64,000 nt of DNA, taken from the IMG/VR virus record IMGVR_UViG_3300028805_000088, positions 25,029 to 89,028 of that record; one strand, given 5' to 3'. The notes beneath the pieces were generated by a model. That model was given only the letters and a program-made list of their open reading frames with translations. It was not told where the DNA came from and made no database searches. Source of the stretch: a virus (lineage: Duplodnaviria > Caudoviricetes). Below are positions 37,415-59,499 of this stretch, piece after piece; the first letter of the stretch is position 1, and each line of letters begins with the position of its first letter. The translations under genes were made by a program, and so were the position numbers.

Positions 37415-37457
37415 AAAAAAGGGTGTCTAAGACTTGATTCTTAGGCACTTTTTTTTT
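37415..37457 (+). terminator. intrinsic terminator after GMPR/IMPDH
   Basis: GTGTCTAAGA/TCTTAGGCAC + T tract. Confidence 0.8.
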
Positions 37458-37474: not shown

Positions 37475-38167
37475 ATGGAAGATAAAATAACAGTCATTTT
37501 TTGCTCCAAAAAGAAGGGTGAAGAAAATAAGGGTTTCATTGACCACATAAAGGAAACTTGTGGATGTGATTTGAACGTTATTTGCGTTCATAACCCAGAT
37601 GGCATATCTCTTTCTAAAATATATGCCGATATGACAGTAAACGAGGAAATCGAAACAAATATCATTATATATATTCATGATGATGTTGAATTCTTAAGGA
37701 AGGGTTGGGGCAGTGAAATATTGAGGCTATTCAACGAACATGAAGATTACGGAATCATCGGAGTTGCTGGTTCTGCACAATTTGACGAAAATGGTGCTTG
37801 GTGGAACTATGAGAAAAAATTTGGACAAGTTTTACATAGATGGGAAGGTAAATCATGGCTTACTGCTTTCTCCCCTCTTCTTGATAAGGATTTACAAGAA
37901 GTTGCTGTAATTGATGGTTTGTTCATTGCAATACACAAAAAAAGAATATCAGAGAACTTTAGTAGAGAATTACAATCTTTTGATTTTTATGACATTTATT
38001 TCTGTCTAGCAAATTATTTTAAGAAAAAATGTAAAATTGGAGTTACGACAAATATAAGAATTGCCCATAATTCAATTGGCAAATTAAAAGATTCTTGGTA
38101 TGAAAATAGAAAAATAATAAATGAAAAATTTGGTAATAAATTTCCAATAGATGTTGATAAAAAATGA
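37475..38167 (+). CDS. glycosyltransferase-like family 2 protein
   Basis: IYIHDDVEF (DxD), IIGVAG, VIDGLFIA, FDFYD. Confidence 0.8.
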   Translation: MEDKITVIFCSKKKGEENKGFIDHIKETCGCDLNVICVHNPDGISLSKIYADMTVNEEIETNIIIYIHDDVEFLRKGWGSEILRLFNEHEDYGIIGVAGSAQFDENGAWWNYEKKFGQVLHRWEGKSWLTAFSPLLDKDLQEVAVIDGLFIAIHKKRISENFSRELQSFDFYDIYFCLANYFKKKCKIGVTTNIRIAHNSIGKLKDSWYENRKIINEKFGNKFPIDVDKK

Positions 38168-38409
38168 AATTAGAAAATTTATCATTAGAAAAAGTATATG
38201 AATTATATAGTATCGTCAAAGAATTTTGTGGAGAATATTCTAAAATGACTGATAATTATGCTTTAACAACTGGAGACAAAACTTTTGAAAATATTCCAGA
38301 AGAATTTAGGTCTTTAATTGAAACTAGGCAAAAACTAATTAGTTATAAACTTAAATTAAATGACTTGATTATAAATAAAATAATAAAAACTATGGAAAAT
38401 AATGAATAA
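38164..38409 (+). CDS. hypothetical protein
   Basis: coupled ORF. Confidence 0.6.
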   Translation: MKLENLSLEKVYELYSIVKEFCGEYSKMTDNYALTTGDKTFENIPEEFRSLIETRQKLISYKLKLNDLIINKIIKTMENNE

Positions 38410-39382
38410 AATTAAAAAATATTTTTTAAATCTCTGGTATGGTCTCCCATTCGGCATGAAAGCTGCTGACACAGAAATTATGGGTAACAAGTCAGTAGAT
38501 GATAATGGAGTTACGATACAGCAAGAGGTTTCAGACCAGAGAGTTGCAAAACATTTGTTGAAAGGTGAGGTTACTCAAGAGGTAGAGGAACTAAGATACA
38601 GAACATACAAGGTTGCTGATGAGTCAGAGAACTACAAATATCTAGGTAATGGTGTTGCAGTAAAAGAAGAAAAGGAAAAAAGACCATTAGATAGAAAAAA
38701 ACATAAATTCACACAAGATAATGAAAATATATGTCAATCAGTATTGGATAGTTTGAAGCAAGTAGGAAACTATGGTGTGGAGAAATATAGGTTTGAAATT
38801 GATTATGACTCACTCGTTAGATTTAAGGTGGAGAAATTTGCAACAAAGGTAGATGTTAATATCAATGACGAAACTGGCTTAATTGAGACAACGCTACACT
38901 TTAATACAGAACCAGACCCATATGACGGAACATCAAAGCCATTCATCAATGAAATTGCTAAGTTGCTTGAAGTAAAGAGTGAATATGAGATTAAGAGAAA
39001 TGAAATTGCTTCATCAATTAAGAATTTCTCTTTCGTTACATACAAGGCAACTAATGAGGATGACTTAGTAACATACAGCTTCATAAATGGTGGTAAGTTC
39101 AAGAGTTTCGAGCAGAAGGGTTATGAATACCTTATGACACTGACTTGGAATGAATATATGAGAGTTCCGCTTAATTTAGAGGCTAAGTATTATTCTAAGA
39201 CTATGGCTGAGAAATATGATAGGAAGGAGAGAAAGGATAATCCAGTTTCATTAGCTGATGTTGAAAGAAAAAGATATTGTTCAGTATGTGGCAAGGAAAT
39301 GTCAGTATATGACGCAGACATACAAGAGGCAAGTGGTCAAGAACCAGTTTGTAAAGAATGTATGGAAAAAGCATTGAAATAA
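38402..39382 (+). CDS. hypothetical protein with C-terminal zinc ribbon
   Basis: CSVC...CKEC. Confidence 0.65.
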   Translation: MNKIKKYFLNLWYGLPFGMKAADTEIMGNKSVDDNGVTIQQEVSDQRVAKHLLKGEVTQEVEELRYRTYKVADESENYKYLGNGVAVKEEKEKRPLDRKKHKFTQDNENICQSVLDSLKQVGNYGVEKYRFEIDYDSLVRFKVEKFATKVDVNINDETGLIETTLHFNTEPDPYDGTSKPFINEIAKLLEVKSEYEIKRNEIASSIKNFSFVTYKATNEDDLVTYSFINGGKFKSFEQKGYEYLMTLTWNEYMRVPLNLEAKYYSKTMAEKYDRKERKDNPVSLADVERKRYCSVCGKEMSVYDADIQEASGQEPVCKECMEKALK

Positions 39383-39403
39383 TAACATAATTAATTATAT
39401 TTT
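39373..39403 (+). promoter_or_regulatory. variant (middle?) promoter
   Basis: ATTG-N19-TATATTTT; only 2 nt from the next ATG, so the start or TSS is uncertain. Confidence 0.4.
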
Positions 39404-39405
39404 AT

Positions 39406-40002
39406 ATGATAACAATTGGTGTAGAGTTAAATCATGTGGTCAGAAACATCAACAAGCAAATTGTAAAATATTATGCAAAGGAATATGCACCTGATGTTGA
39501 CCTAGACGATATAGATGATAGAGAGGATGTGTTGAAAACATTTGCTAAGTTCGATAGCAAATATGAGAGGAATAATTTCTTATTTATAGATTATCCTTAT
39601 GAGATATTTGGATGCGCTAGTACAATGGAAAAGAAATTAGCAGTAAAGATTACAAATTGGCTTACTGACATTTCAAACATCGAAGACGAAGATATTAGAA
39701 TCATTTTCTACAGTTTGAATGAAGAAGCATTAACAATTCAGTCAACATTCTTTTTCTTGAGCAAGATTGGTACTAGAGTAAGAAAGGTTATTTTTCCTAA
39801 GACAATAGAAGAGGTTTGGGATGAATGCGATGTTGTGATTACTGCTAGAGACGAATTCTTTGAAAAGGAGATTCCAGAAGGTAAGAAAGTTGTATTAATT
39901 AATAGACCATTCAATAAAGACTGCAAAGATAAGGCATTCTTAAATTATGATAATTTGAGTGAAATAATCACTGATGAAGAATTTTTTAGCAAATTGAAGT
40001 AA
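39406..40002 (+). CDS. HAD/5'-nucleotidase-like protein with degenerate motif I
   Basis: ITIGVELNHVVRN resembles IGIDxDGVL; CDVVI. Confidence 0.45.
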   Translation: MITIGVELNHVVRNINKQIVKYYAKEYAPDVDLDDIDDREDVLKTFAKFDSKYERNNFLFIDYPYEIFGCASTMEKKLAVKITNWLTDISNIEDEDIRIIFYSLNEEALTIQSTFFFLSKIGTRVRKVIFPKTIEEVWDECDVVITARDEFFEKEIPEGKKVVLINRPFNKDCKDKAFLNYDNLSEIITDEEFFSKLK

Positions 40003-40337
40003 TGAAGAATAATACATTTATTTTCGACATCAATAAGATAACTGATTTCGTGTTCGGTAATCCAAATGATAGAACAAGCGATGTAGAAATTACAGAGAAC
40101 TACATTTACGATTCTGATAAAGATAAGATGATACCAAACACAAGAGAGGTTAAAGAGGTAAAGGTTAATGATTATACTGGACAAAACACAATTCGTTACG
40201 ACCTTATTAAAACCTTTATTGACATCCTAGATGCGGTTGAAGACCCAAAGGTTATGTCTCTAGGACAACAGATAACATATAATACGATGCAAGCGTATGA
40301 ATTAATAAAAGATATAAAAGACAGCGACAATGAGTGA
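40002..40337 (+). CDS. hypothetical protein
   Basis: coupled ORF. Confidence 0.6.
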   Translation: MKNNTFIFDINKITDFVFGNPNDRTSDVEITENYIYDSDKDKMIPNTREVKEVKVNDYTGQNTIRYDLIKTFIDILDAVEDPKVMSLGQQITYNTMQAYELIKDIKDSDNE

Positions 40338-41418
40338 TAAGGATTTAAAAGTTATTGAGAATATTGAAAAAGAAATATCAAAAATTGATAAGAAGGAAAA
40401 CAGAATTTATTTCTTCGTTATCGACAGTAAAGGACATCCATCTGGTTCTCTTGAGTATATCTACAACCTCGCATTGATTCTAAAGGAAGAGGGATACAAT
40501 GTTAGTATGCTTCATACTGAGGAAGAGTTTGTAGGAGTTGGCGCATGGTTAGATGAGAGATATGCAAATCTCCCACACTACAACGTAAACAAGGGAGAGG
40601 TTGGAACATCACCATCTGACTTGCTGTTTATACCTGAGATTTATTCACAAGTTATGAACCAGACAAAGCAGCTTCCTTGTAAGAGAGTTGCAATTCTTCA
40701 GAACTACAACTACTTGGTTGAACAGATGCCTTACGTAGCACAGTGGGGTGATTTCGGTATCATGGAAGGTATTACCAACTCTGATTACCAAGCAGCAGAG
40801 CTTAATGAGTCTTTCCCATATGTAAAACTTAGAAAGGTTACACCATTTATCTCTAAACTTTTCGGTAAGACAAATGAACCAAGAAAAATGGTTGTAAATA
40901 TAGTATCTAAAGACCAGTCTAACATCAAGAAGATTGTTAAGCCATTCTATTGGAAATATCCAATGTTTAAGTGGGTTTCATTTAAAGAACTCAGGAATCT
41001 ATCAAAAGAAGACTTTGCAAAAGCATTGCGTGATGGTGCTATAACTGTCATTGTTGACGAGGATGCAAGTTTCTGTTATTCTGCACTTGAGTCGGTTAAA
41101 AGCGGTTCAATTACAATGTGTAAAGTTCCTGAAACGGAATGGGATTGGGCTTCTAATGAAGATGGTACATTACCAAATTGCTGCGTCTGGTTTAACGACT
41201 ATGATACATTGCATAAACAGTTGGCAAGTGTTGTCCGTTCATGGATTACAGATAAAGTTCCTACAGTTCTTGAGGAAGAAGGTAAGAAGGTTCTTGAAAA
41301 GTACTCTTACGATAAGACTAAGGGTGAGTTGCTTACATACGTTAACGACACCCTTGGAAAAAGAAAAAAGGAAATGGAAGAATTAATAATCCAAATTAAG
41401 GCTAAAAAGGAGGAATAG
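40330..41418 (+). CDS. glycosyltransferase-like protein (GT-B)
   Basis: SGSLEYIYNLA..L.EEGY, FIPEI, NSDY, SFCYSALES..SG. Confidence 0.65.
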   Translation: MSDKDLKVIENIEKEISKIDKKENRIYFFVIDSKGHPSGSLEYIYNLALILKEEGYNVSMLHTEEEFVGVGAWLDERYANLPHYNVNKGEVGTSPSDLLFIPEIYSQVMNQTKQLPCKRVAILQNYNYLVEQMPYVAQWGDFGIMEGITNSDYQAAELNESFPYVKLRKVTPFISKLFGKTNEPRKMVVNIVSKDQSNIKKIVKPFYWKYPMFKWVSFKELRNLSKEDFAKALRDGAITVIVDEDASFCYSALESVKSGSITMCKVPETEWDWASNEDGTLPNCCVWFNDYDTLHKQLASVVRSWITDKVPTVLEEEGKKVLEKYSYDKTKGELLTYVNDTLGKRKKEMEELIIQIKAKKEE

Positions 41419-41420
41419 TA

Positions 41421-42032
41421 ATGAAAGAATTCCTAAAAAGCGATACAATAGTTGGGAATATTAATCCAGATGTGTCGATTTGTGTCCATAAATACGAAGA
41501 TGCTAAAAAAAGTAATAAAATGGGTGACAAACTCAAGAACTATCTTGACAGATGGGATAGGCTAGGCTTTTTACAAAATTTTCCAGATGATAGAAAAGAA
41601 GAATTAGCATTTGCTTATGAACAACTTGCAATATTTTTGATTTACTGTGAAAGTGACCAAACTGACAAATTGTTCGATAAAGATGAATATGGCAATCGCC
41701 CATTTGAAACAATTGGTTTTCCAATGGTAAGAAGGGTTCTTGGGAACTTAGAATCAAATGTGTTCGATTTTCAGAAGTTCTTGAAATATTGCAAAGTATT
41801 CAATGTAAACGACATCATTAAATTGTTAACGTACAATGAACTATGTTATCAACGTATTGATTATGAAGCAGAAGGTGTGGCTATATGCTGTGAAATGATT
41901 GAAAAGAAATTCAAAAATCCTAACAAAAATGATGAAGAAATCAAAAATGAAAGTCTTGATAGGCTTTATAAAATAATTGAAGATAAAAAGAAAAAGAATG
42001 AAGGAACTAGTAGTGATAATACCAATGAATGA
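41421..42032 (+). CDS. stand-alone paralogue of the major capsid protein N-terminal domain
   Basis: MKEFL.S..VGNI, RWD.LGF, KE..A..YE..A..LIY and FET..FP..RRV match 54936..56981. Confidence 0.8.
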   Translation: MKEFLKSDTIVGNINPDVSICVHKYEDAKKSNKMGDKLKNYLDRWDRLGFLQNFPDDRKEELAFAYEQLAIFLIYCESDQTDKLFDKDEYGNRPFETIGFPMVRRVLGNLESNVFDFQKFLKYCKVFNVNDIIKLLTYNELCYQRIDYEAEGVAICCEMIEKKFKNPNKNDEEIKNESLDRLYKIIEDKKKKNEGTSSDNTNE

Positions 42033-42786
42033 ATTTGGTAAAGAAAATATTGAGTTGTTAAACAAGGCTGTTGAGTCAGTACCAAGCGAACTCAATGTCT
42101 TGCTTTCAGTACCAAGTGGTACTGATGGAAAGAAGTTGAAGGGTATAAGCGATAGGCTTGGTGTTGTGTCAGAGTCAGAAGGTAGCTCTTTCGCAGAACT
42201 TGTCAACGCAGCCGTTAACACAATCGAAGAGAAATGGTTCTCAATTCTTGAGTTTGATGATACATATACACCAATCTGGTATGACAACGCTAAGAAGTAC
42301 ATCGAGTTTATGCCAAGTACAAGCGTATTCATGTATCTTGAGGACATCACAGATTTCAATGACGGTAAGTACATCGGATTCGGAAATTCAGAGGCTTGGG
42401 CGAGTTCTTTTTCAAATGAGATTGGCTTCATTGACAATGATTGTTTGCAAAACTATTTTGATTTCTATCTAACTGGTAGCATATTTAATACTGCTGACTG
42501 GCGTGAAATTGGAGGGCTGAAGCCACAAATTAAACTAACGTTTTGGTACGAATGGCTTCTACGTGCAACTAATAAGAGTAAAAAAGTTTATGTAATTCCA
42601 AAAGTGGGATACAATCATAAACTTAATAGAAAGGGGTCACTAGTAGAAGTATATAGAAACGTGATGTCAAAAGAGGAAATCGAGTTTAGTTTTGACCTTG
42701 CGAAGAAAGAATATTTTTATCATCCATCAGTTGAAAGAGATTTATCTAAATTTATTTTTAAACCTAATGAAGAAACTAACAACTAA
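41998..42786 (+). CDS. glycosyltransferase family 2-like protein
   Basis: LVVIIP, WFSILEFDD, GSIFN, YVIPKVGY.H. Confidence 0.65.
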   Translation: MKELVVIIPMNEFGKENIELLNKAVESVPSELNVLLSVPSGTDGKKLKGISDRLGVVSESEGSSFAELVNAAVNTIEEKWFSILEFDDTYTPIWYDNAKKYIEFMPSTSVFMYLEDITDFNDGKYIGFGNSEAWASSFSNEIGFIDNDCLQNYFDFYLTGSIFNTADWREIGGLKPQIKLTFWYEWLLRATNKSKKVYVIPKVGYNHKLNRKGSLVEVYRNVMSKEEIEFSFDLAKKEYFYHPSVERDLSKFIFKPNEETNN

Positions 42787-43711
42787 AGAATTCAAAGATA
42801 GGATTTTATTAGTCCATAAAAATAAATTTATTTATGACAAAACAGATTTAGAAAATCGTGATGAAAAGGGGCGAGTAATTATTACTTGCCCTATACATGG
42901 AGATTTTTTGCAAACACCTAAAAATCATCTACATGGGCAAGGTTGCCCAAAATGTAGTCATAAATCCACTAAATATACAGTTGAAGAAATTAAAGAAAAA
43001 ATAAGAAAAAAATATAACGGTAAATATGATGTTTCACTAATTACTGAATATAGTAATAATACACAAAAACTACCATTAATTTGTGATGAACATGGATATT
43101 TTGAAGCAACCTGGAATGATTTAGACAACAATCATGGATGCCAAAAATGTGGAAAAATAAAAAATTATGAATCACTTAGAAAAACATCAAAAACGTTTAT
43201 AGAAGAAGCAATAAAAATTCATGGTAGTAACTATGATTATTCTCTTGTAGACTATAAAAGAGCGCATAGTTATATTAATTTAAAATGCAATAAATGTGGT
43301 CATTTATTTAAAATAATGCCAAATGAGCATCTAAAAGGTAAAGGATGCCCAAGATGTAATGAAAGTCATTTAGAAAATGAAATAAGGTTATTCTTAGAAA
43401 TGAACAATATTGATTTCTATGACAAAAAACATTTTAATTGGTTAGGACTCCAACATTTAGATTTTTATTTACCAAAATATAATATGGGAATAGAATGCCA
43501 AGGGAAACAACATTTTGAAGCCGTTAAACATTTTGGTGGATTACAAGGCTATAAAACTCGTTTTTTATTAGATAAAAATAAAAAAGAACTCTGTAAAGAA
43601 CATAATGTTAGAATATTGTATTATACTCACGAAGATTATGATTCATTTTTAGGTGAACAATTAATTAAAAACACTGATAAACTTTTAGAAGAGATAAAAA
43701 AATATGATTAA
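42767..43711 (+). mobile_element. free-standing putative homing endonuclease
   Basis: CPIHGDF.QTP.NHL.GQGCPKC repeats; LDFYLPKYNMGIECQGKQH; probable start MKKLTT overlaps the GT gene. Confidence 0.8.
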
Positions 43712-43893: not shown

Positions 43894-43930
43894 AAATGGC
43901 ATTAATTATGATGGTTAATGCCATTTTTTT
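43894..43930 (+). terminator. intrinsic terminator
   Basis: AAATGGCATTAA/TTAATGCCATTT. Confidence 0.8.
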
Positions 43931-44078: not shown

Positions 44079-44852
44079 ATGTCAGAAATTTGCGTAACAG
44101 AAGAAAAAGTCAAAAAGAAGAGAGGTAGAAAACCATCTAAAGAAAGAAAAGGTTATTTCTATGAAGAACAAGAACAAGCGGTTGTAGATTATATTTCCAC
44201 TGACGATGAAAAGGAAAAAAATAGAATTTTCAACACGACCCTCAAACCAGCATTTACGAAGATGATTGAATCAATCATAAGGAGATATAATTTGTATCCA
44301 CCAGATGAAGAATTCCAAGAAACATTTGACGATACTATATCATTCCTTATGACTAAGCTATCATGTTTCGACCCTAGTACAAATTATAAAGCATATTCTT
44401 ATTGTGGCACAATTTGTAAAAACTATTTGATTTATAAAATCAATCAATTCTCAAAGAATCAGAAGAGAAATATTTCTTACGATAATCCATTTGAAACGGT
44501 TCAAAATGATATAAATGATAATATCACATATTCATATGATGAAACTGACCCAAGAAAGACATTCTTGACTGAACTAACAGGACATACCGTTGAAAACATT
44601 GAAAGAATCCTTGCAGACAAGGAAAAAATGAAACTCAATGAAAACGAAATTAAAGTAGGCCAAGCATTGATAAACCTTATGAGGAATTGGGATGAACTAT
44701 TTGCCCAAATGGGTAGTAATAAGTTTAACAAAAGTTCAATTCTATTATTCTTGAAGGAAACCACAATGTTGAACACTAAAGAGATAAGGGATGCCATTAG
44801 AGTATATAAGAAAAGATATTATGACGTTAAATGGAAACTTATCAATGAATAA
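44079..44852 (+). CDS. phage sigma factor, T4 gp55-like (late transcription)
   Basis: KMIESIIRRYNL...FDDTISFL..K...FDP....KAYSYCGTICKNYL region-2-like pattern. Confidence 0.7.
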   Translation: MSEICVTEEKVKKKRGRKPSKERKGYFYEEQEQAVVDYISTDDEKEKNRIFNTTLKPAFTKMIESIIRRYNLYPPDEEFQETFDDTISFLMTKLSCFDPSTNYKAYSYCGTICKNYLIYKINQFSKNQKRNISYDNPFETVQNDINDNITYSYDETDPRKTFLTELTGHTVENIERILADKEKMKLNENEIKVGQALINLMRNWDELFAQMGSNKFNKSSILLFLKETTMLNTKEIRDAIRVYKKRYYDVKWKLINE

Positions 44853-47513: not shown

Positions 47514-47906
47514 ATGGGTATACAACAAATCTGTCAAACCATAAAAAATTATTTTAACAATGTGAGACCGCCATTTCCGCAATTACCTAGATTACTCTTG
47601 GTCTGCTCAATGATACGCAGACCAGGACTGTCTGTCATCCAGTCAGTGGCAAACATCACAAAAGACTTAAATAAGCTAGGTATTCCTACAGGTGCAATGC
47701 CAGATGGTAGTGCAAATCTAACAGTTGCATTTACATTTGCAAATACTAAAGAAATATATAGAGGCGTTAAAAAAGATGCCTCAGTACAAGTGGGATTTCA
47801 GCCAGGTTCTATGATGCTTACTGCATTTGGAAGTAATGGTGGAGGCCCTATAACAGTACAAGGATTAAACACATCACCAGGACAAGCATTTGGAGACATA
47901 AATTAA
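47514..47906 (+). CDS. baseplate-region protein, tandem copy A
   Basis: 96/130 aa identical to the next gene. Confidence 0.75.
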   Translation: MGIQQICQTIKNYFNNVRPPFPQLPRLLLVCSMIRRPGLSVIQSVANITKDLNKLGIPTGAMPDGSANLTVAFTFANTKEIYRGVKKDASVQVGFQPGSMMLTAFGSNGGGPITVQGLNTSPGQAFGDIN

Positions 47907-47912
47907 ACAATT

Positions 47913-48305
47913 ATGGGTATAGAACAAATTTGTAAAACAATAAGTAATTTCTTTAACAATGTGAGGCCACCGTTCCCACAATTGTCTAGATTGCTCTTGG
48001 TGTGCTCTATGATACGCAGACCAGGACTATCTGTAATTCAATCTGTGGCAAACATCACAAAAGACCTAAACAAAATAGGTATTCCAACAGGTAAAAATCC
48101 TGCTGGGTGTGAAAATATGAGTCTTGGCTATTCTTATGCTTATGTTAATGAAATATATAGAGCATTAAAAAAAGACACATCATTACAAGTTGGTGTGGCT
48201 CCAGGAAGTTTAATGATTACTGCATTTGGAAGTAACGGTGGAGGTCCTATAGTTGTTCAAGGAATGAATACATCGCCAGCGGTTGGATTTGGTGATATAA
48301 ATTAA
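47913..48305 (+). CDS. baseplate-region protein, tandem copy B
   Basis: 96/130 aa identical to the previous gene. Confidence 0.75.
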   Translation: MGIEQICKTISNFFNNVRPPFPQLSRLLLVCSMIRRPGLSVIQSVANITKDLNKIGIPTGKNPAGCENMSLGYSYAYVNEIYRALKKDTSLQVGVAPGSLMITAFGSNGGGPIVVQGMNTSPAVGFGDIN

Positions 48306-53940: not shown

Positions 53941-54885
53941 ATGGAAAAGAAAACAACTAAACAATTTGTTGAAGAAGCTAAAAAAATTCATGGAGATAAA
54001 TATGATTATTCTAAAGTAGAATACATAAATAAAAGAACTAAAGTATGTATAATATGTCCCATTCATGGTGAATTCTGGCAAAGACCTAATGACCATTTAA
54101 AAGGGTGTGGCTGTTATGAATGCGGAAGAAAAAATTGTACTGGTAAAAAAGTTGATACAAATAGCTTTATAAATGAAGCTAAAAAAATTCATGGAGATAA
54201 ATATGATTATTCTAAAGTTAATTATATTAATTCTCATACTAAAGTGTGCATAATATGTCCAATTCATGGTGAATTCTGGCAAATACCATCTGCTCACACT
54301 AGTGGTCAAGGATGTCCTAAATGTAAAACTTATAAAATTGGAAAAAATAAATATAATACAGAAATTTTTGTAAATCTTTCAAAAAAAATTCATGGAGATA
54401 AATATGATTATTCCAAAACAAAATATATCAATTCAAAAACCAAAGTATGTATAATATGCCCAGAACATGGGGAGTTTTGGCAAGAAGCTAGCAGACATTT
54501 AATGGGTGATAATTGTCCAAAATGTAAAAATAGCAGTTTAGAAAATAGTATAATAAAGCTATTATCTTCAAACAATATAAAATTTATTAATGGGTGCAAT
54601 AAAACCGTTTTACCTTGGATTGAAAGGCAGCATTTAGATTTTTATTTACCAGATTATAATGTAGCAATTGAATGTCAAGGATTACAACATTTTAAAAAAA
54701 TAGATTTTTTTGGTGGCGAGTCTAATTTTATTGAATTAAGAAAAAGAGATATAAATAAATTAAATAAATGTAAAAAAAATAATATAAAACTATTATATTT
54801 TTCAAAAGAAAATTATAACGAATTTTTAGGTGAAAAAATTTATAAAACAACAAATGATTTATTAGAAGAAATAAAAAAAGGATGA
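53941..54885 (+). mobile_element. free-standing putative homing endonuclease
   Basis: three IHGDKYDYSK..Y.N..TKVCIICP.HGEFWQ repeats; LDFYLPDYNVAIECQGLQH. Confidence 0.85.
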
Positions 54886-54935: not shown

Positions 54936-56981
54936 TTATCTGAACTCATTGATTGACCAATGTACAAGACCGTCAACACGAACGTGGCCATAATAGCGGT
55001 TGTTAACCATCTTCTTAGCGTAACGAGTCATGATACCCTTTACTGGTGCGAAGTTGAATGGATTGTACATAGTAGGAGTCAACTGCATTGGTACGTATGG
55101 AGCATAGATGTAACCTGTGTCAAGTAAGCTCTTACCCTTGTGACCGATGATAATTGACCAGTGTGGGCTATATGGGTCACGATATACAGTGTAACGTCCG
55201 CTTAATGAACCAATCTTCTCAATACCCATGTTGTACTGGTCGCTCTCTGCGCTAGCGTCAGATACGTGGAAGTACTCAAGGTTATCGAACAATGCGCTGA
55301 TTTCTGAAGATACTACGATGAAGTTTGCACCACCACGAAGTGTTGACTTGTGAATTTGTGCAGAAATCTGGTTAATCTTAGTCATCAACTCTTGGTTCCA
55401 GTCTTTCTGAGTATAGTTAGTTGAGAATGCAGCCATTCTTCTCCAACCATTAACATCCCAACGAGCCTGCCAAGGTGCGCCCTTACGCAAGTCACGAAGA
55501 ATCTCACGGTCAATTTCTGCTGCAATCTGCTCTGAAAGGATTGCAGTCAACTCAGCCTCTGCGTCAATGTTGTGGAATGCAGAAACGTCTTGTGCCAACT
55601 CTGGAGACCATGTAGCACGAAGCTTTCTTTCCTCAACTGAAACAGTTACTGAATCAAGCTTGAAGCTAACCTCACCGATTTCAGTCTCAAGCTCAAGAGA
55701 ATCGTACTGTGCCCAAGCTACCTTGAACAACTTAGCCATATTCTCCTTAGTTGCATCGAAATCAATTGTACCGCCAGTTGTCTTAACGATTTCAGCGTTC
55801 AACTGCTCTGCATCAACACCGATGTAACCATCGATTGTACCTGCTTGCTGAACAACTGGTTTAGCCAAGTCAAGCTCAATATACATCTTGCCATCAGCAT
55901 CGCAAATTGCACCGTACTCAACGATACCCTTACCATACTTCTGAGTTACAACTCTGAATGGAACAGACTCGAACTTACGGAAAGCTGCTGTCATAACTGC
56001 ATCTGAACCAGGAGCAGTAGCTGCGCTGAACTGAGTCTGAGTGATAACTTTCAATGAAGCAAGGAATCCTTCAGTGTCCATTTCGTTTCCATCAGGACCA
56101 GTTAACTTGCTAGCGTTGAAGCTAGAGAAACCATCAATCTCAAGGATTACGTTACGAACTGTGCCATCGAAACCACTCTTGAAGTATTGGTTAAGATTGT
56201 CAGCACCGAAAGGACGAACGCCACCAGGAGTTAGGAATACTGGAACAGCACCACCAACCTTAATAGTTACCTTACCCTTTGAGTTATCATACAAGAAGTC
56301 GTTGTAGAACAAGTCATACAAACTCTTCTGGAAGTACTGAGTTACCTCTGGACCTGCTTGACGAAGAGCAGTTACATGAAGACCCTCAGCCTCTGCACGT
56401 GCCTTAGCCTCATCGAAGCTAGTTGCATCAGCGATTTCCTCACCAAGTTGTGGAACATACCATGAGTTCTTGTCAAGCTCATTAATTGTCTCGTCTGGGA
56501 GATAGTATCTTGGCTCAACACGACCTTCCTTGTTACGGTTAACTCTGTCATAGCCCATAAGACCCTTATGACGACCTGTAGTTCCATCATAGATGTCACC
56601 AGGCTGAGTGCCACCTGTCAAGTCTGCTGGAAGCTCCCACTCTCTCTCTGAAGTAACAGGAAGAATGAAGAACAACTTACCAACTGGAAGGTTCATTGCT
56701 TGAACTGATACAATGTCATTAGCAAGAAGCTTGCTAAATACCCTACGAATGATAGGGAATACAACGGTCTCGAATGAACCGCTATTATCTGAAGCAGTAG
56801 CCTCGTAAATCAAGTGCTTTGCCTCATTCTCATACAATGTAGCAACATTCTCCTTAATGCCCTCTGGAAGGCCCTCTGTGAATCCAAGCTGGTCCCAACG
56901 GTTCTGAATGTCCTCACGTATCTGTTTTTGTGCGTTGTACTCGATATTACCAACTACACCACTTGATAAAAATTCTTTCAT
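54936..56981 (-). CDS. major capsid protein, T4 gp23-like
   Basis: VQAMNLPVG, RKLRATWSPELAQDV...DAEAELT.ILSEQIAAEIDREIL, YAPYVP, GIMTRY. Confidence 0.93.
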   Translation of the reverse strand: MKEFLSSGVVGNIEYNAQKQIREDIQNRWDQLGFTEGLPEGIKENVATLYENEAKHLIYEATASDNSGSFETVVFPIIRRVFSKLLANDIVSVQAMNLPVGKLFFILPVTSEREWELPADLTGGTQPGDIYDGTTGRHKGLMGYDRVNRNKEGRVEPRYYLPDETINELDKNSWYVPQLGEEIADATSFDEAKARAEAEGLHVTALRQAGPEVTQYFQKSLYDLFYNDFLYDNSKGKVTIKVGGAVPVFLTPGGVRPFGADNLNQYFKSGFDGTVRNVILEIDGFSSFNASKLTGPDGNEMDTEGFLASLKVITQTQFSAATAPGSDAVMTAAFRKFESVPFRVVTQKYGKGIVEYGAICDADGKMYIELDLAKPVVQQAGTIDGYIGVDAEQLNAEIVKTTGGTIDFDATKENMAKLFKVAWAQYDSLELETEIGEVSFKLDSVTVSVEERKLRATWSPELAQDVSAFHNIDAEAELTAILSEQIAAEIDREILRDLRKGAPWQARWDVNGWRRMAAFSTNYTQKDWNQELMTKINQISAQIHKSTLRGGANFIVVSSEISALFDNLEYFHVSDASAESDQYNMGIEKIGSLSGRYTVYRDPYSPHWSIIIGHKGKSLLDTGYIYAPYVPMQLTPTMYNPFNFAPVKGIMTRYAKKMVNNRYYGHVRVDGLVHWSINEFR

Positions 56982-57050: not shown

Positions 57051-58577
57051 TTATTTCATCATTCTGTGCATCAAATCAAGAGAATCTAATACGTCTGGTG
57101 ACTGATAGATTTTTGTCTCATTGATTTTCTTTGAACCCTCTACTGTAAGAGAAGCCTCTTCAGTGATGTTCATCTTCTTTGACTTCTGAAGGTCTCTGCT
57201 GATTGACTCATAAAGGTTCTTAGAAGCCTCTACAGTCTTTGCCTCATTTGAGAATCTTGAGATAATCTCTTTCTTCTCGTCTTGAGTTGTTGAGTTCTCA
57301 GAAATCAACTTGATAATCATACCAAGATTGTGATTTGTTACAGCAGCCTCTTTCAATGATGTCATAACATCAGTCAAGGTAGCCTTCAACTCTTTGTTCT
57401 CAGCAAGAACTTTATTTGCTCTCTTCATAAAGCTCTCTGAAACTGTATCTTCTTCACCACCGCTATAACGTGGAGTTACAGTACCCTTAACTCTCTTTCC
57501 GCCTTTACTCATAGAACGAGCGTTACGACCATTTGAGTTAGGAACGTGAGACTTAGATGTGCTGTTCTGTTGTACGAATCCACCAACGTTTGTTGCTTCC
57601 TCTACAGGAGCCTCAACATTGCCACACTCTTCAACTGCACCTTCTACAGCTTCCTCTTCTTCAAGTTGTTTACCCTTCTTGTCATTGAATGGCTTGTCTG
57701 CTTTATTTTTCTTGCCTGGGTATCCTGACCAAGGTTTCTCAGTTCCATGAGGAACACCTGCGTCCCAGTCGTTTACATTTTTGCCTGGCTCTGACATGCC
57801 TGGATTTGTCATTACATCCTTTTTCTGATAATTGTCAGTGTATCCTACGTTTGAATCATACTCTAATACTAATTCAAACATTCTCTCTGTTGATTCATTC
57901 ATATCGTTATTCTCATTTTCAAAATCATCTTCTGCACCGAAATCATCAGCACCTTCATCATCAGTAATTACATCATCACTTGGTTCAGATGCTGCAACAC
58001 CAGTTGCTTCACCATTGTCTCCAAGATTGATTAGGTACTCAGCTCCAGTTTCGTTGTCTTGAATGTTTACGTTACCATTATCGTCCTTATGAACGAGTAT
58101 CTGGTCATCGTTCTTCATTAGCTTGTAAACCTTTACGATTTCCTCGTCTTCCGCATTAGAAAAGTCATACTCATCGTCTGATATTTTATATTTGTCAAAC
58201 TCTGCCCATTCGTCACCTTCATCGCTTGGCTCGCCACCTTCCTTTGCACCATCTACAACAGTGTCATCACCGCCCTCAACAGCAGCATCGTCAATTGGCT
58301 CGTCAGCTTCCATACCAGTGTCAGTACCCTCTACATCATCTGTAGCAGCATCTACTGATTCAGCATTATTTGTAATATCAGAACTAGTATCTTCCACTTC
58401 CTCTTCTTCGTAGTCCTTGTCATCGTCCTCAGACAATAACTTGGCATATGTATCACGTACAGCCTCATCTAAAAGAGTTTTGACCGCACTCTCAGTATTT
58501 TCCTTCAAAGAATTAGCGAGTGCATTGTAATCCAATAAAGATTCTTTCACTACTTTGCTTCTAATATTTTTATTCAT
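57051..58577 (-). CDS. prohead core / scaffold protein
   Basis: acidic disordered middle, C-terminal coil, many L/I-x-E sites; lies between protease and MCP. Confidence 0.7.
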   Translation of the reverse strand: MNKNIRSKVVKESLLDYNALANSLKENTESAVKTLLDEAVRDTYAKLLSEDDDKDYEEEEVEDTSSDITNNAESVDAATDDVEGTDTGMEADEPIDDAAVEGGDDTVVDGAKEGGEPSDEGDEWAEFDKYKISDDEYDFSNAEDEEIVKVYKLMKNDDQILVHKDDNGNVNIQDNETGAEYLINLGDNGEATGVAASEPSDDVITDDEGADDFGAEDDFENENNDMNESTERMFELVLEYDSNVGYTDNYQKKDVMTNPGMSEPGKNVNDWDAGVPHGTEKPWSGYPGKKNKADKPFNDKKGKQLEEEEAVEGAVEECGNVEAPVEEATNVGGFVQQNSTSKSHVPNSNGRNARSMSKGGKRVKGTVTPRYSGGEEDTVSESFMKRANKVLAENKELKATLTDVMTSLKEAAVTNHNLGMIIKLISENSTTQDEKKEIISRFSNEAKTVEASKNLYESISRDLQKSKKMNITEEASLTVEGSKKINETKIYQSPDVLDSLDLMHRMMK

Positions 58578-58743: not shown

Positions 58744-59499
58744 ATGTTAAACATGAAAAAAAATGAATTAGATATATACCTTTTAGAGCATGGCTATAAA
58801 AGCCGTGAACTAGAAATAATAAAAGAAGGTAAAACAGGACATGGTATCCTAATCGAGAATGATGGCTTTATGTATTTGAAGAATACAAAGGAAAACAAGA
58901 TGATTAGGGAAAGTATAGAAAATGGTGAATGGAATATACCACATCCATTTGTTGTTGATGCAGTATTTCAGAAGTTTGGTATAAAGAATGCAAACGGTAG
59001 AATATACCCAGAAGAGGTATTGAAGAAGCAAGTTGAAATATACCAACAGAAGATTGATGAGAGAAGAGCATTAGGTGAATTAAACCACCCAGCAGAATCA
59101 ACAATTGACCTTGATAGGATTGCAATCAATATCATAGAGCTTCATTGGGAAGGTAGAACATTGGTTGGCAAACTTGAGATTAACACATCATACGGATTTA
59201 GAAAATATGGTATTGTTTCAACTCGTGGAGACCAGATGGCTAACTTATTGCTCAATGGATATAAGATTGGTGTATCATCAAGAGGTGTTGGCTCAGTTGA
59301 ACAGAAACTTGGACAATACATTGTAGGTGATGACTTCGAACTTATATGTTGGGATGTTGTTAGTGACCCATCAACTCCAGGCGCATACATCGGAACTCAA
59401 GAAGAACTAACACAATATCTAGAGACTGATACAACAAAAGAAGAAAAGCCTAAACTTAATGAAAAAATAGATAGGATAAAGAGCATTCTTAATTCATAA
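58744..59499 (+). CDS. prohead core protease, T4 gp21-like
   Basis: KNANGRIYP, LGELNHP, GVSSRGVGS, WDVVSDPSTPGA. Confidence 0.92.
   Translation: MLNMKKNELDIYLLEHGYKSRELEIIKEGKTGHGILIENDGFMYLKNTKENKMIRESIENGEWNIPHPFVVDAVFQKFGIKNANGRIYPEEVLKKQVEIYQQKIDERRALGELNHPAESTIDLDRIAINIIELHWEGRTLVGKLEINTSYGFRKYGIVSTRGDQMANLLLNGYKIGVSSRGVGSVEQKLGQYIVGDDFELICWDVVSDPSTPGAYIGTQEELTQYLETDTTKEEKPKLNEKIDRIKSILNS

Follow-up and report, generated by a model that had tools for sequence, protein, structure and literature searches.

The window analysed here is a stretch of 64,000 nucleotides. It belongs to an 89-kb genome fragment, with a completeness estimated at about 30%, of an uncultured, giant T4-like phage. 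In it, an open reading frame (ORF) of 203 amino acid residues, which we call mini-MCP for its relation to the major capsid protein (MCP) of the same virus, lies between two genes of glycosyltransferase type. The features that bear on it are listed below with their coordinates in the window.

37415..37456, plus strand: terminator-like hairpin upstream of the putative transcription unit, with an 18-bp stem and a T run (consensus scan only)
37475..38167, plus strand: first gene of the putative transcription unit, a glycosyltransferase (Pfam Glyco_tranf_2_5, E 1.3e-27)
40330..41418, plus strand: upstream neighbour, a GT-B-type glycosyltransferase of 362 aa (Atlas Glycos_transf_1 clusters; profile against PDB 8xsg, E 7e-14)
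41407..41413, plus strand: Shine-Dalgarno sequence AAGGAGG, read from the sequence, 7 nt before the mini-MCP ATG and within the last codons at the 3' end of the GT-B gene
41421..42032, plus strand: mini-MCP gene, an open ORF of 203 aa (75 full-length homologues; AF2 model; dN/dS about 0.2)
41421..41750, plus strand: segment 1 of mini-MCP (aa 1-110), homologous to MCP 1-85, with the propeptide helices and the N-arm helix FETxxFPxxRRV
41637..41654, plus strand: L73-I-Y-C76-E-S, aligned with the MCP maturation site L-I-Y-E60/A; no L/I-x-E, with Cys76 at P1
41820..41924, plus strand: segment 2 of mini-MCP (aa 134-168), homologous to MCP 461-494, with the IDAEAE spine-helix motif (hhalign)
41998..42032, plus strand: overlap of 35 nt between the mini-MCP 3' end and the GT-A start, encoding the tail NEGTSSDNTNE
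41998..42786, plus strand: downstream neighbour, a GT-A-type glycosyltransferase of 262 aa (Atlas Glycos_transf_2 clusters; weak matches to PDB glycosyltransferases, E 0.002)
43894..43926, plus strand: terminator-like hairpin downstream of the unit, with a 15-bp stem and a T run (consensus scan only)
54936..56981, minus strand: parent gene, a gp23-type MCP of 681 aa (Pfam Gp23, E 5e-73, 247 bits; aligns to the T4 gp23 structures 8t9r and 5vf3)
57051..58577, minus strand: acidic protein of 508 aa adjoining the MCP gene, likely the scaffold (net charge -62; assigned from position only)
58744..59499, plus strand: prohead protease of the T4 gp21 type (Peptidase_S77, E 9e-25)

The mini-MCP gene is held in a tight plus-strand run (37475..43711) between the two terminator-like hairpins, in which the glycosyltransferase recognised by Pfam is followed by four genes without family match, the GT-B gene, mini-MCP, the GT-A gene and a zinc-finger-rich gene. 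A first interpretation made from the letters of the window (hereafter the sequence-only reading) had placed the ORF inside a glycosyltransferase cluster. Both flanking genes are supported as GT-B and GT-A types, the profile match of the former being to a bacterial glucoside glucosyltransferase (8xsg; PMC12159676), while Pfam itself recognises a glycosyltransferase only at 37475..38167. The ORF is a real gene and has a strong ribosome-binding site. It begins 2 nt, not 3 nt as read at first, after the stop codon (TAG, 41416-41418) of the GT-B gene, and the overlap with the next gene, which had been noticed correctly, covers 35 nt from the ATG at 41998. The conserved C-terminal tail (NEGTSSDNTNA) was considered as a docking peptide and rejected. 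It is coded by these 35 nt, which overlap the conserved GT-A start, and it represents the other reading frame of MKELVVIIPMNEF; moreover, it is missing wherever the mini-MCP and GT-A genes do not overlap. The conservation of the tail is thus due to the gene overlap. Promoter scans of the window (TATAAATA and sigma-70) were uninformative, the DNA being AT-rich.

BLASTP analysis aligned residues 1-113 of the ORF with MCP 1-88 at 36% identity (E 5e-13), and comparison of the family profile with an alignment of 69 MCPs using hhalign gave a probability of 99.5% (E 4.8e-23) for ORF 1-110 against MCP 1-85, scores at which the N-terminal resemblance of the two sequences is evidently real and far beyond chance. 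The ORF had been described in the sequence-only reading as a free-standing copy of the MCP N-terminal domain, and both comparisons bear this out; all of the motifs quoted there were found, and the family profile matches gp23-type N-termini significantly, the lack of such a match having been named as an argument against the idea. The same reading let the ORF diverge after its N-terminal part. This does not hold throughout, since residues 134-168 are homologous to MCP 461-494 (probability 87.5%, E 3.6e-6, hhalign). For this second segment, the controls gave E 0.33 with a reversed MCP alignment, 0.14–0.58 with two glycosyltransferase alignments and at least 0.077 in 20 column shuffles. The two matches are collinear with the MCP in the profile-profile comparison, and the same two places were matched by the family profile in every MCP gene searched in six frames (more than 20). 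MCP 461-494 aligns to 'ELAQDLRAVHGMDADAELSGILATEIMLEINREV' of T4 gp23, which we take, from the gp24 and gp23 structures, to be the long P-domain spine helix. The T4 gp23 stretch PAVMGMVRRAIPNLIAFDICGVQPMNSPTG, presumably the Gol region, is the aligned counterpart of MCP 72-109; of the equivalent stretch, mini-MCP has only the start (FPxxRRV), without LLANDIVSVQAM. The first 14 MCP residues are also present in the mini-MCP of this lineage. Taken together, the alignments point to a two-piece mini-MCP that consists of the propeptide, the N-arm helix and a remnant of the spine helix. At an E cut-off of 0.01 the ORF matched no Pfam family, Gp23 included, and the acidic 508-aa protein beside the MCP gene has no family match either. 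As for the parent protein itself, only residues 72-109 and 383-655 of its 681 aa align to T4 gp23, and residues ~110-380 form a large insertion of ~270 residues between N-arm and core. A weak match to MCP 255-394 lies inside another protein of ~510-520 aa in relatives.

The ORF belongs to a large family. Sequence search recovered 75 full-length homologues of 190-215 aa with identity down to 37%, on metagenomic contigs of up to ~412 kb, and a profile built from 28 of them, when run against 1.8 billion representative proteins, found 565 clusters at the 50% identity level (E 0.001 or better). The matches fall into two groups, small proteins (120-210 aa) that cover profile positions ~35-165, and long proteins (584-783 aa) matched only at profile positions 38-100. 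The latter correspond to residues 23-85 of the long proteins, which are MCP N-termini and score E 1e-10 to 1e-13 in the same library. The pattern of the family, at ~120-215 aa, is the MCP N-module (RW..LGF..GL, FP..RR) followed by the D.EAE spine-helix motif without any beta core, and the ORF fits it. W45, F100, P101, R104, D147, E149 and A150 show no or almost no variation, and the family is acidic (median pI 4.8). Searches of Pfam and PHROG returned no family for 51 diverse small members, the comparison with the T4 prohead core proteins gp67 and gp68 being confined to these family profiles, and the ORF itself has one marginal PHROG match of unknown function. No tblastn match to the ORF or to three diverse family members was found in 50,697 GenBank phage records, and Microcystis phage Mel-JY01, the closest cultured relative by its MCP, has no family member. 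A literature search for such a mini-MCP family or for a capsid-protein mimic found no description. Mini-MCP is not a Gp23 family member by profile or fold; it is a derived fragment paralogue. This analysis adds the loss of the protease site across the family, the explanation of the tail by gene overlap and the exact cassette borders, together with the dN/dS estimates, the variable gene order, a second glycosyltransferase-linked context and the fusion and intermediate forms described below.

Prediction with AF2 using the family alignment gave one compact, all-helical domain of ten helices and no strands (pLDDT 85.9, pTM 0.83). By DSSP, helices 32-47, 56-75, 95-109 and 148-165 of mini-MCP correspond to helices 8-32, 40-63, 69-87 and 472-499 of the MCP model, which is of low confidence (pLDDT 60) and fit only for this comparison of secondary structure. 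None of the HK97 core (E-loop, P-domain sheet, A-domain) is present in the all-helical model, and only two MCP segments align. The claim of the sequence-only reading that the rest of the HK97 fold is missing was therefore nearly right, except for the surviving remnant of the spine helix. Compared with T4 gp23 (PF07068; HK97 fold with a 65-residue propeptide, an N-arm including the Gol stretch and a P-domain spine helix), mini-MCP has two collinear homologous segments with the same helix order; it lacks the E-loop, the A-domain, the P-domain sheets, the Pfam Gp23 match and the L/I-x-E site, and it is a 203-aa, predicted soluble globular protein that is optional rather than essential. The T4 vertex protein gp24 is likewise an MCP paralogue coded elsewhere in the same genome, but it keeps the whole HK97 fold as a structural component of the shell, whereas mini-MCP, with only helical fragments, is predicted to be unable to tile. 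The model thus depicts a soluble compact protein from which the beta-rich, shell-tiling parts are gone, and the fold-defining residues (W, G..G, FP..RR and D.EAE) are retained. Foldseek against PDB found nothing at E 0.001 or better for the model, a search of BFVD gave a single match to an uncharacterised relative, and the family profile had no match among PDB sequences. A known fold was also sought with VIA-align wide, the best hit of which (Z 6.0 over a 65-residue helical piece) is within the noise of helical proteins and was rejected. Neither a Pfam match nor Rossmann-like strands mark mini-MCP itself as a glycosyltransferase, its predicted fold being all-alpha.

The maturation site was treated separately. 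It had been pointed out that the MCP reads IYE/A where the ORF reads IYCES, and the alignment of L-I-Y-E60/A with L73-I-Y-C76-E-S confirms this. A gp21-type L/I-x-E was said to be absent from the aligned position of the ORF, and indeed Cys76 stands there, while 96 of 96 MCPs keep L/I-x-E in this column. Among the small proteins it is found in 68 of 188 (36%), or in 26 of 115 representatives of the 50% clusters (23%), so that 77% of the family representatives have lost the site. In contrast, W29, G33, G37, F75, P76 and R79, which are common to the MCP, are kept in 85–100% of the representatives. No other L/I-x-E could be read in the first 180 residues of the ORF, the only match being I-I-E near residue 187. 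These counts indicate that mini-MCP keeps the fold and drops the protease site.

Comparison of relatives showed how the gene behaves. At the 13 IMG/VR loci found via the mini-MCP gene synteny is complete, and the flanking proteins are 66–98% identical while mini-MCP is 35–63% identical; in the same genomes the MCP is 92–94% identical, with its first 110 residues almost invariant. Of 31 loci found via the GT-B gene, about 15 have the GT-A gene directly after GT-B and no mini-MCP, among them L167, the GT-B of which is 94% identical to that in the window. No family member exists anywhere in the complete genomes G022 (409.5 kb) and G023 (312 kb), nor was any found in G009 (280 kb, 80% complete). 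The gene order also varies, mini-MCP standing either between GT-B and GT-A or, as in G006 and G007, after GT-A. In a sliding comparison with L164, the window has a nucleotide identity of 95–98% in the flanks and of 36–63% exactly over 41428-41988, and L167 lacks exactly 41430-41970 of the window. In pairs with dS <1 (Nei-Gojobori), dN/dS is 0.17-0.22 for mini-MCP and 0.03-0.09 for GT-B, and mini-MCP is accordingly under purifying but relaxed selection. From the synteny, the absences, the borders and the dN/dS values it follows that the mini-MCP gene is functional, optional and several times faster-evolving than its neighbours, and that its alleles are exchanged as a cassette. The divergence of the scaffold and that of mini-MCP both roughly track overall distance, which is uninformative on co-variation. 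Scans of viral and metagenome collections for distant members were dominated by MCP N-termini and yielded L050, L130 and two contigs of less than 2 kb. In L130 the distant member follows a GT92/GT2/DUF4422 protein and an NAD-dependent sugar epimerase, and the canonical GT-B/GT-A site on the same contig is without mini-MCP; in L050 the member precedes a T4-type baseplate gene, with no detectable glycosyltransferase adjoining.

In several family members, two mini-MCP domains are fused in tandem. One protein of 389 aa (P0176) has two such domains and in addition a stretch like MCP ~523-565 (TQxDWNQ..INQ.S.QI), by which it can be recognised as a less reduced intermediate between MCP and mini-MCP. 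The complete genome G001 (295 kb) contains a dead 45-codon ORF (L047:3388-3492, equal to G001:C1:250388-250492, minus strand), the first 35 codons of which repeat without change the start of the G001 MCP gene, at a distance of 176 kb; unrelated sequence and a stop come next. The ORF is an ectopic, partial copy of the 5' end of the MCP gene. The family is thus an example of a structural gene whittled down to a new soluble domain, with the dead 5' fragment, the tandem fusions and the 389-aa form as intermediates.

As to function, we tentatively favour the explanation that mini-MCP is a soluble mimic of unassembled MCP which acts as a decoy on the host side. Such a protein would be unable to polymerise and would probably not be matured by the prohead protease; since it neither polymerises nor matures, it would persist as a look-alike of unassembled, uncleaved MCP and compete with newly made MCP for whatever recognises the N-terminal module. 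Because the module is almost invariant in the MCP while the mimic is dispensable and diversifying, the likeliest partner would lie outside the core assembly line. Our first guess would be a host factor by which new capsid protein is sensed or handled, for instance an immune sensor resembling Lit/Gol or CapRel, or the chaperonin; after this would come docking on the scaffold core, either to be packaged along with it or to modulate assembly. In T4, the N-terminal module of gp23 is in contact with the scaffold core, and the Gol stretch, which sets off the Lit defence, is part of this module. The more specific form of the idea, an anti-defence decoy of the invariant MCP N-module that blinds Lit/Gol-like or CapRel-like immune sensors, we regard, taken by itself, as somewhat doubtful. 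The N-terminus of gp23 has been found to target fusion proteins to GroEL in T4 (PMC3012670). Anti-defence decoys of the protein-mimic class, such as Ocr, a DNA mimic, resemble mini-MCP in concept only, as small acidic accessory proteins that imitate a molecule recognised by the host; they have no sequence or fold relation to mini-MCP, for which decoy activity is putative.

Several facts count against the favoured explanation. Relaxed constraint alone could account for the fast divergence, with no need of an arms race; the part of the Gol-equivalent stretch beyond FPxxRRV is not common to the mimic; and the location in a glycosyltransferase unit is left unexplained by a decoy. As L/I-x-E is kept in a minority of members, some of these may be processed and packaged. 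Bacterial immune systems sense capsid proteins among other phage molecules, and it is through the gp23-type N-module that the chaperonin and the Lit/Gol abortive-infection pathway are known to be engaged. A copy of this module in which the protease site is dropped, and which is optional and exchanged as a cassette, is a candidate for a new manipulation of capsid sensing or head assembly. If the decoy explanation is true, the family of 565 clusters would be a new and widespread class of phage counter-defence, made by cutting down a structural gene; if mini-MCP is only an assembly accessory, it would still be of use as a marker and for probing the gp23 propeptide, the structure of which is unsolved.

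Another possibility, which we regard as somewhat doubtful, is that mini-MCP docks on the prohead, its MCP-like module binding the scaffold core as the propeptide does. Once taken up into proheads, it would be an accessory protein, internal or ejected, in analogy to the T4 internal proteins, or it would influence how the head assembles or how large it becomes. The whole inward-facing module is shared with the MCP, in this lineage down to the first 14 residues, the phage encodes both a gp21-type protease and an acidic scaffold-like protein, L/I-x-E is kept in 23–36% of the members, and one distant member (in L050) lies among structural genes, those of the baseplate. Besides, mini-MCP is accessory, hypervariable and cassette-like, as has been described for the T4 internal protein (IP) loci (PMC3012670). 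IPI, IPII and IPIII are likewise small, accessory and variable between relatives, and have an N-terminal element in common with the head-assembly machinery (PMC3012670). However, the CTS of the T4 internal proteins has ~10 residues and is removed at L/I-x-E, whereas the corresponding element of mini-MCP has ~110 residues plus the spine-helix piece and lies within a folded domain; a cut at the aligned site would, according to the model, split a single globular domain. The site itself is lost in the window copy and in most of the family, unlike in the internal proteins, and there is no CTS-type site in the first 180 residues of the ORF. The acidity of the family, the position of the gene in a non-structural unit and the fact that complete relatives assemble without it also speak against docking.

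Besides a modulator of assembly and a decoy, both of which are candidates here too, the sequence-only reading had put forward, as its leading idea, an adaptor, in which the mimic binds MCP or proheads and recruits GT-B and GT-A to glycosylate the capsid. The neighbourhood on which this was founded is real: mini-MCP is flanked by the GT-B and GT-A genes and translationally coupled to or overlapping with them, the unit begins with a third glycosyltransferase, and the linkage is kept, despite changed gene order, in relatives whose flanking proteins are only 41–60% identical. When the linkage of homologues to glycosyltransferases was checked, as that reading had proposed, the result was divided, the member in L130 lying beside a different glycosyltransferase and a sugar epimerase and that in L050 among baseplate genes without any detectable one. 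What does not stand is the dependence, since the same GT pair is kept without mini-MCP at about half of the GT-B loci and in G022 and G023; because the glycosyltransferase neighbours persist without it, an obligatory adaptor role is unlikely. Moreover, glycosyltransferase genes are frequent in these genomes, so that the chance of mere adjacency is not small, and there is no evident reason for a copy of the MCP's own module to bind a glycosyltransferase. Shortly before the unit, in the same plus-strand series of genes, come a dUTPase gene and one that is IMPDH/GMP-reductase-like, and thymidylate-synthase-family genes are present in four of five complete relatives, so DNA or other targets of the glycosyltransferases are equally possible. 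On balance, the adaptor appears improbable.

Finally, that mini-MCP is an evolutionary leftover, a partial MCP duplicate without specific role that drifts towards loss, would agree with its dispensability and fast evolution and with the partial duplication seen in G001, but it is very improbable, being largely refuted by the selection and conservation data, namely intact frames and conserved length across 565 clusters, dN/dS of ~0.2 and conservation of the fold-defining positions at 85–100%, besides the strong Shine-Dalgarno sequence, the compact fold predicted with confidence and the existence of tandem-domain fusions.

Some further observations concern the surroundings of the gene. The thymidylate-synthase-family genes of the relatives are unusually long (364-418 aa; for example G002:C1:281484-282701 and G022:C1:374382-375602), and in two genomes the thymidylate-synthase match in Pfam is split by an insertion; what the glycosyltransferases modify would depend in part on whether these genes encode a synthase or a base hydroxymethylase. 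The genes at 42767-43711 and 53941-54885 (both plus strand) encode paralogous zinc-finger-repeat proteins, each of 314 aa, with DUF4379 treble-clef matches, and copies of them come and go between relatives at several sites, like homing-endonuclease-like mobile genes. Two adjacent genes for 130-aa paralogues with a weak NTF2-like match (47514-47906 and 47913-48305, plus strand) have a single counterpart at this place in relatives and are thus a recent tandem duplication in this lineage. Directly after the glycosyltransferase unit, a gene at 44079-44852 (plus strand) encodes a protein of 257 aa, which is 73–99% identical across relatives and, with a marginal match to sigma-70 region 2, could be a late sigma factor.
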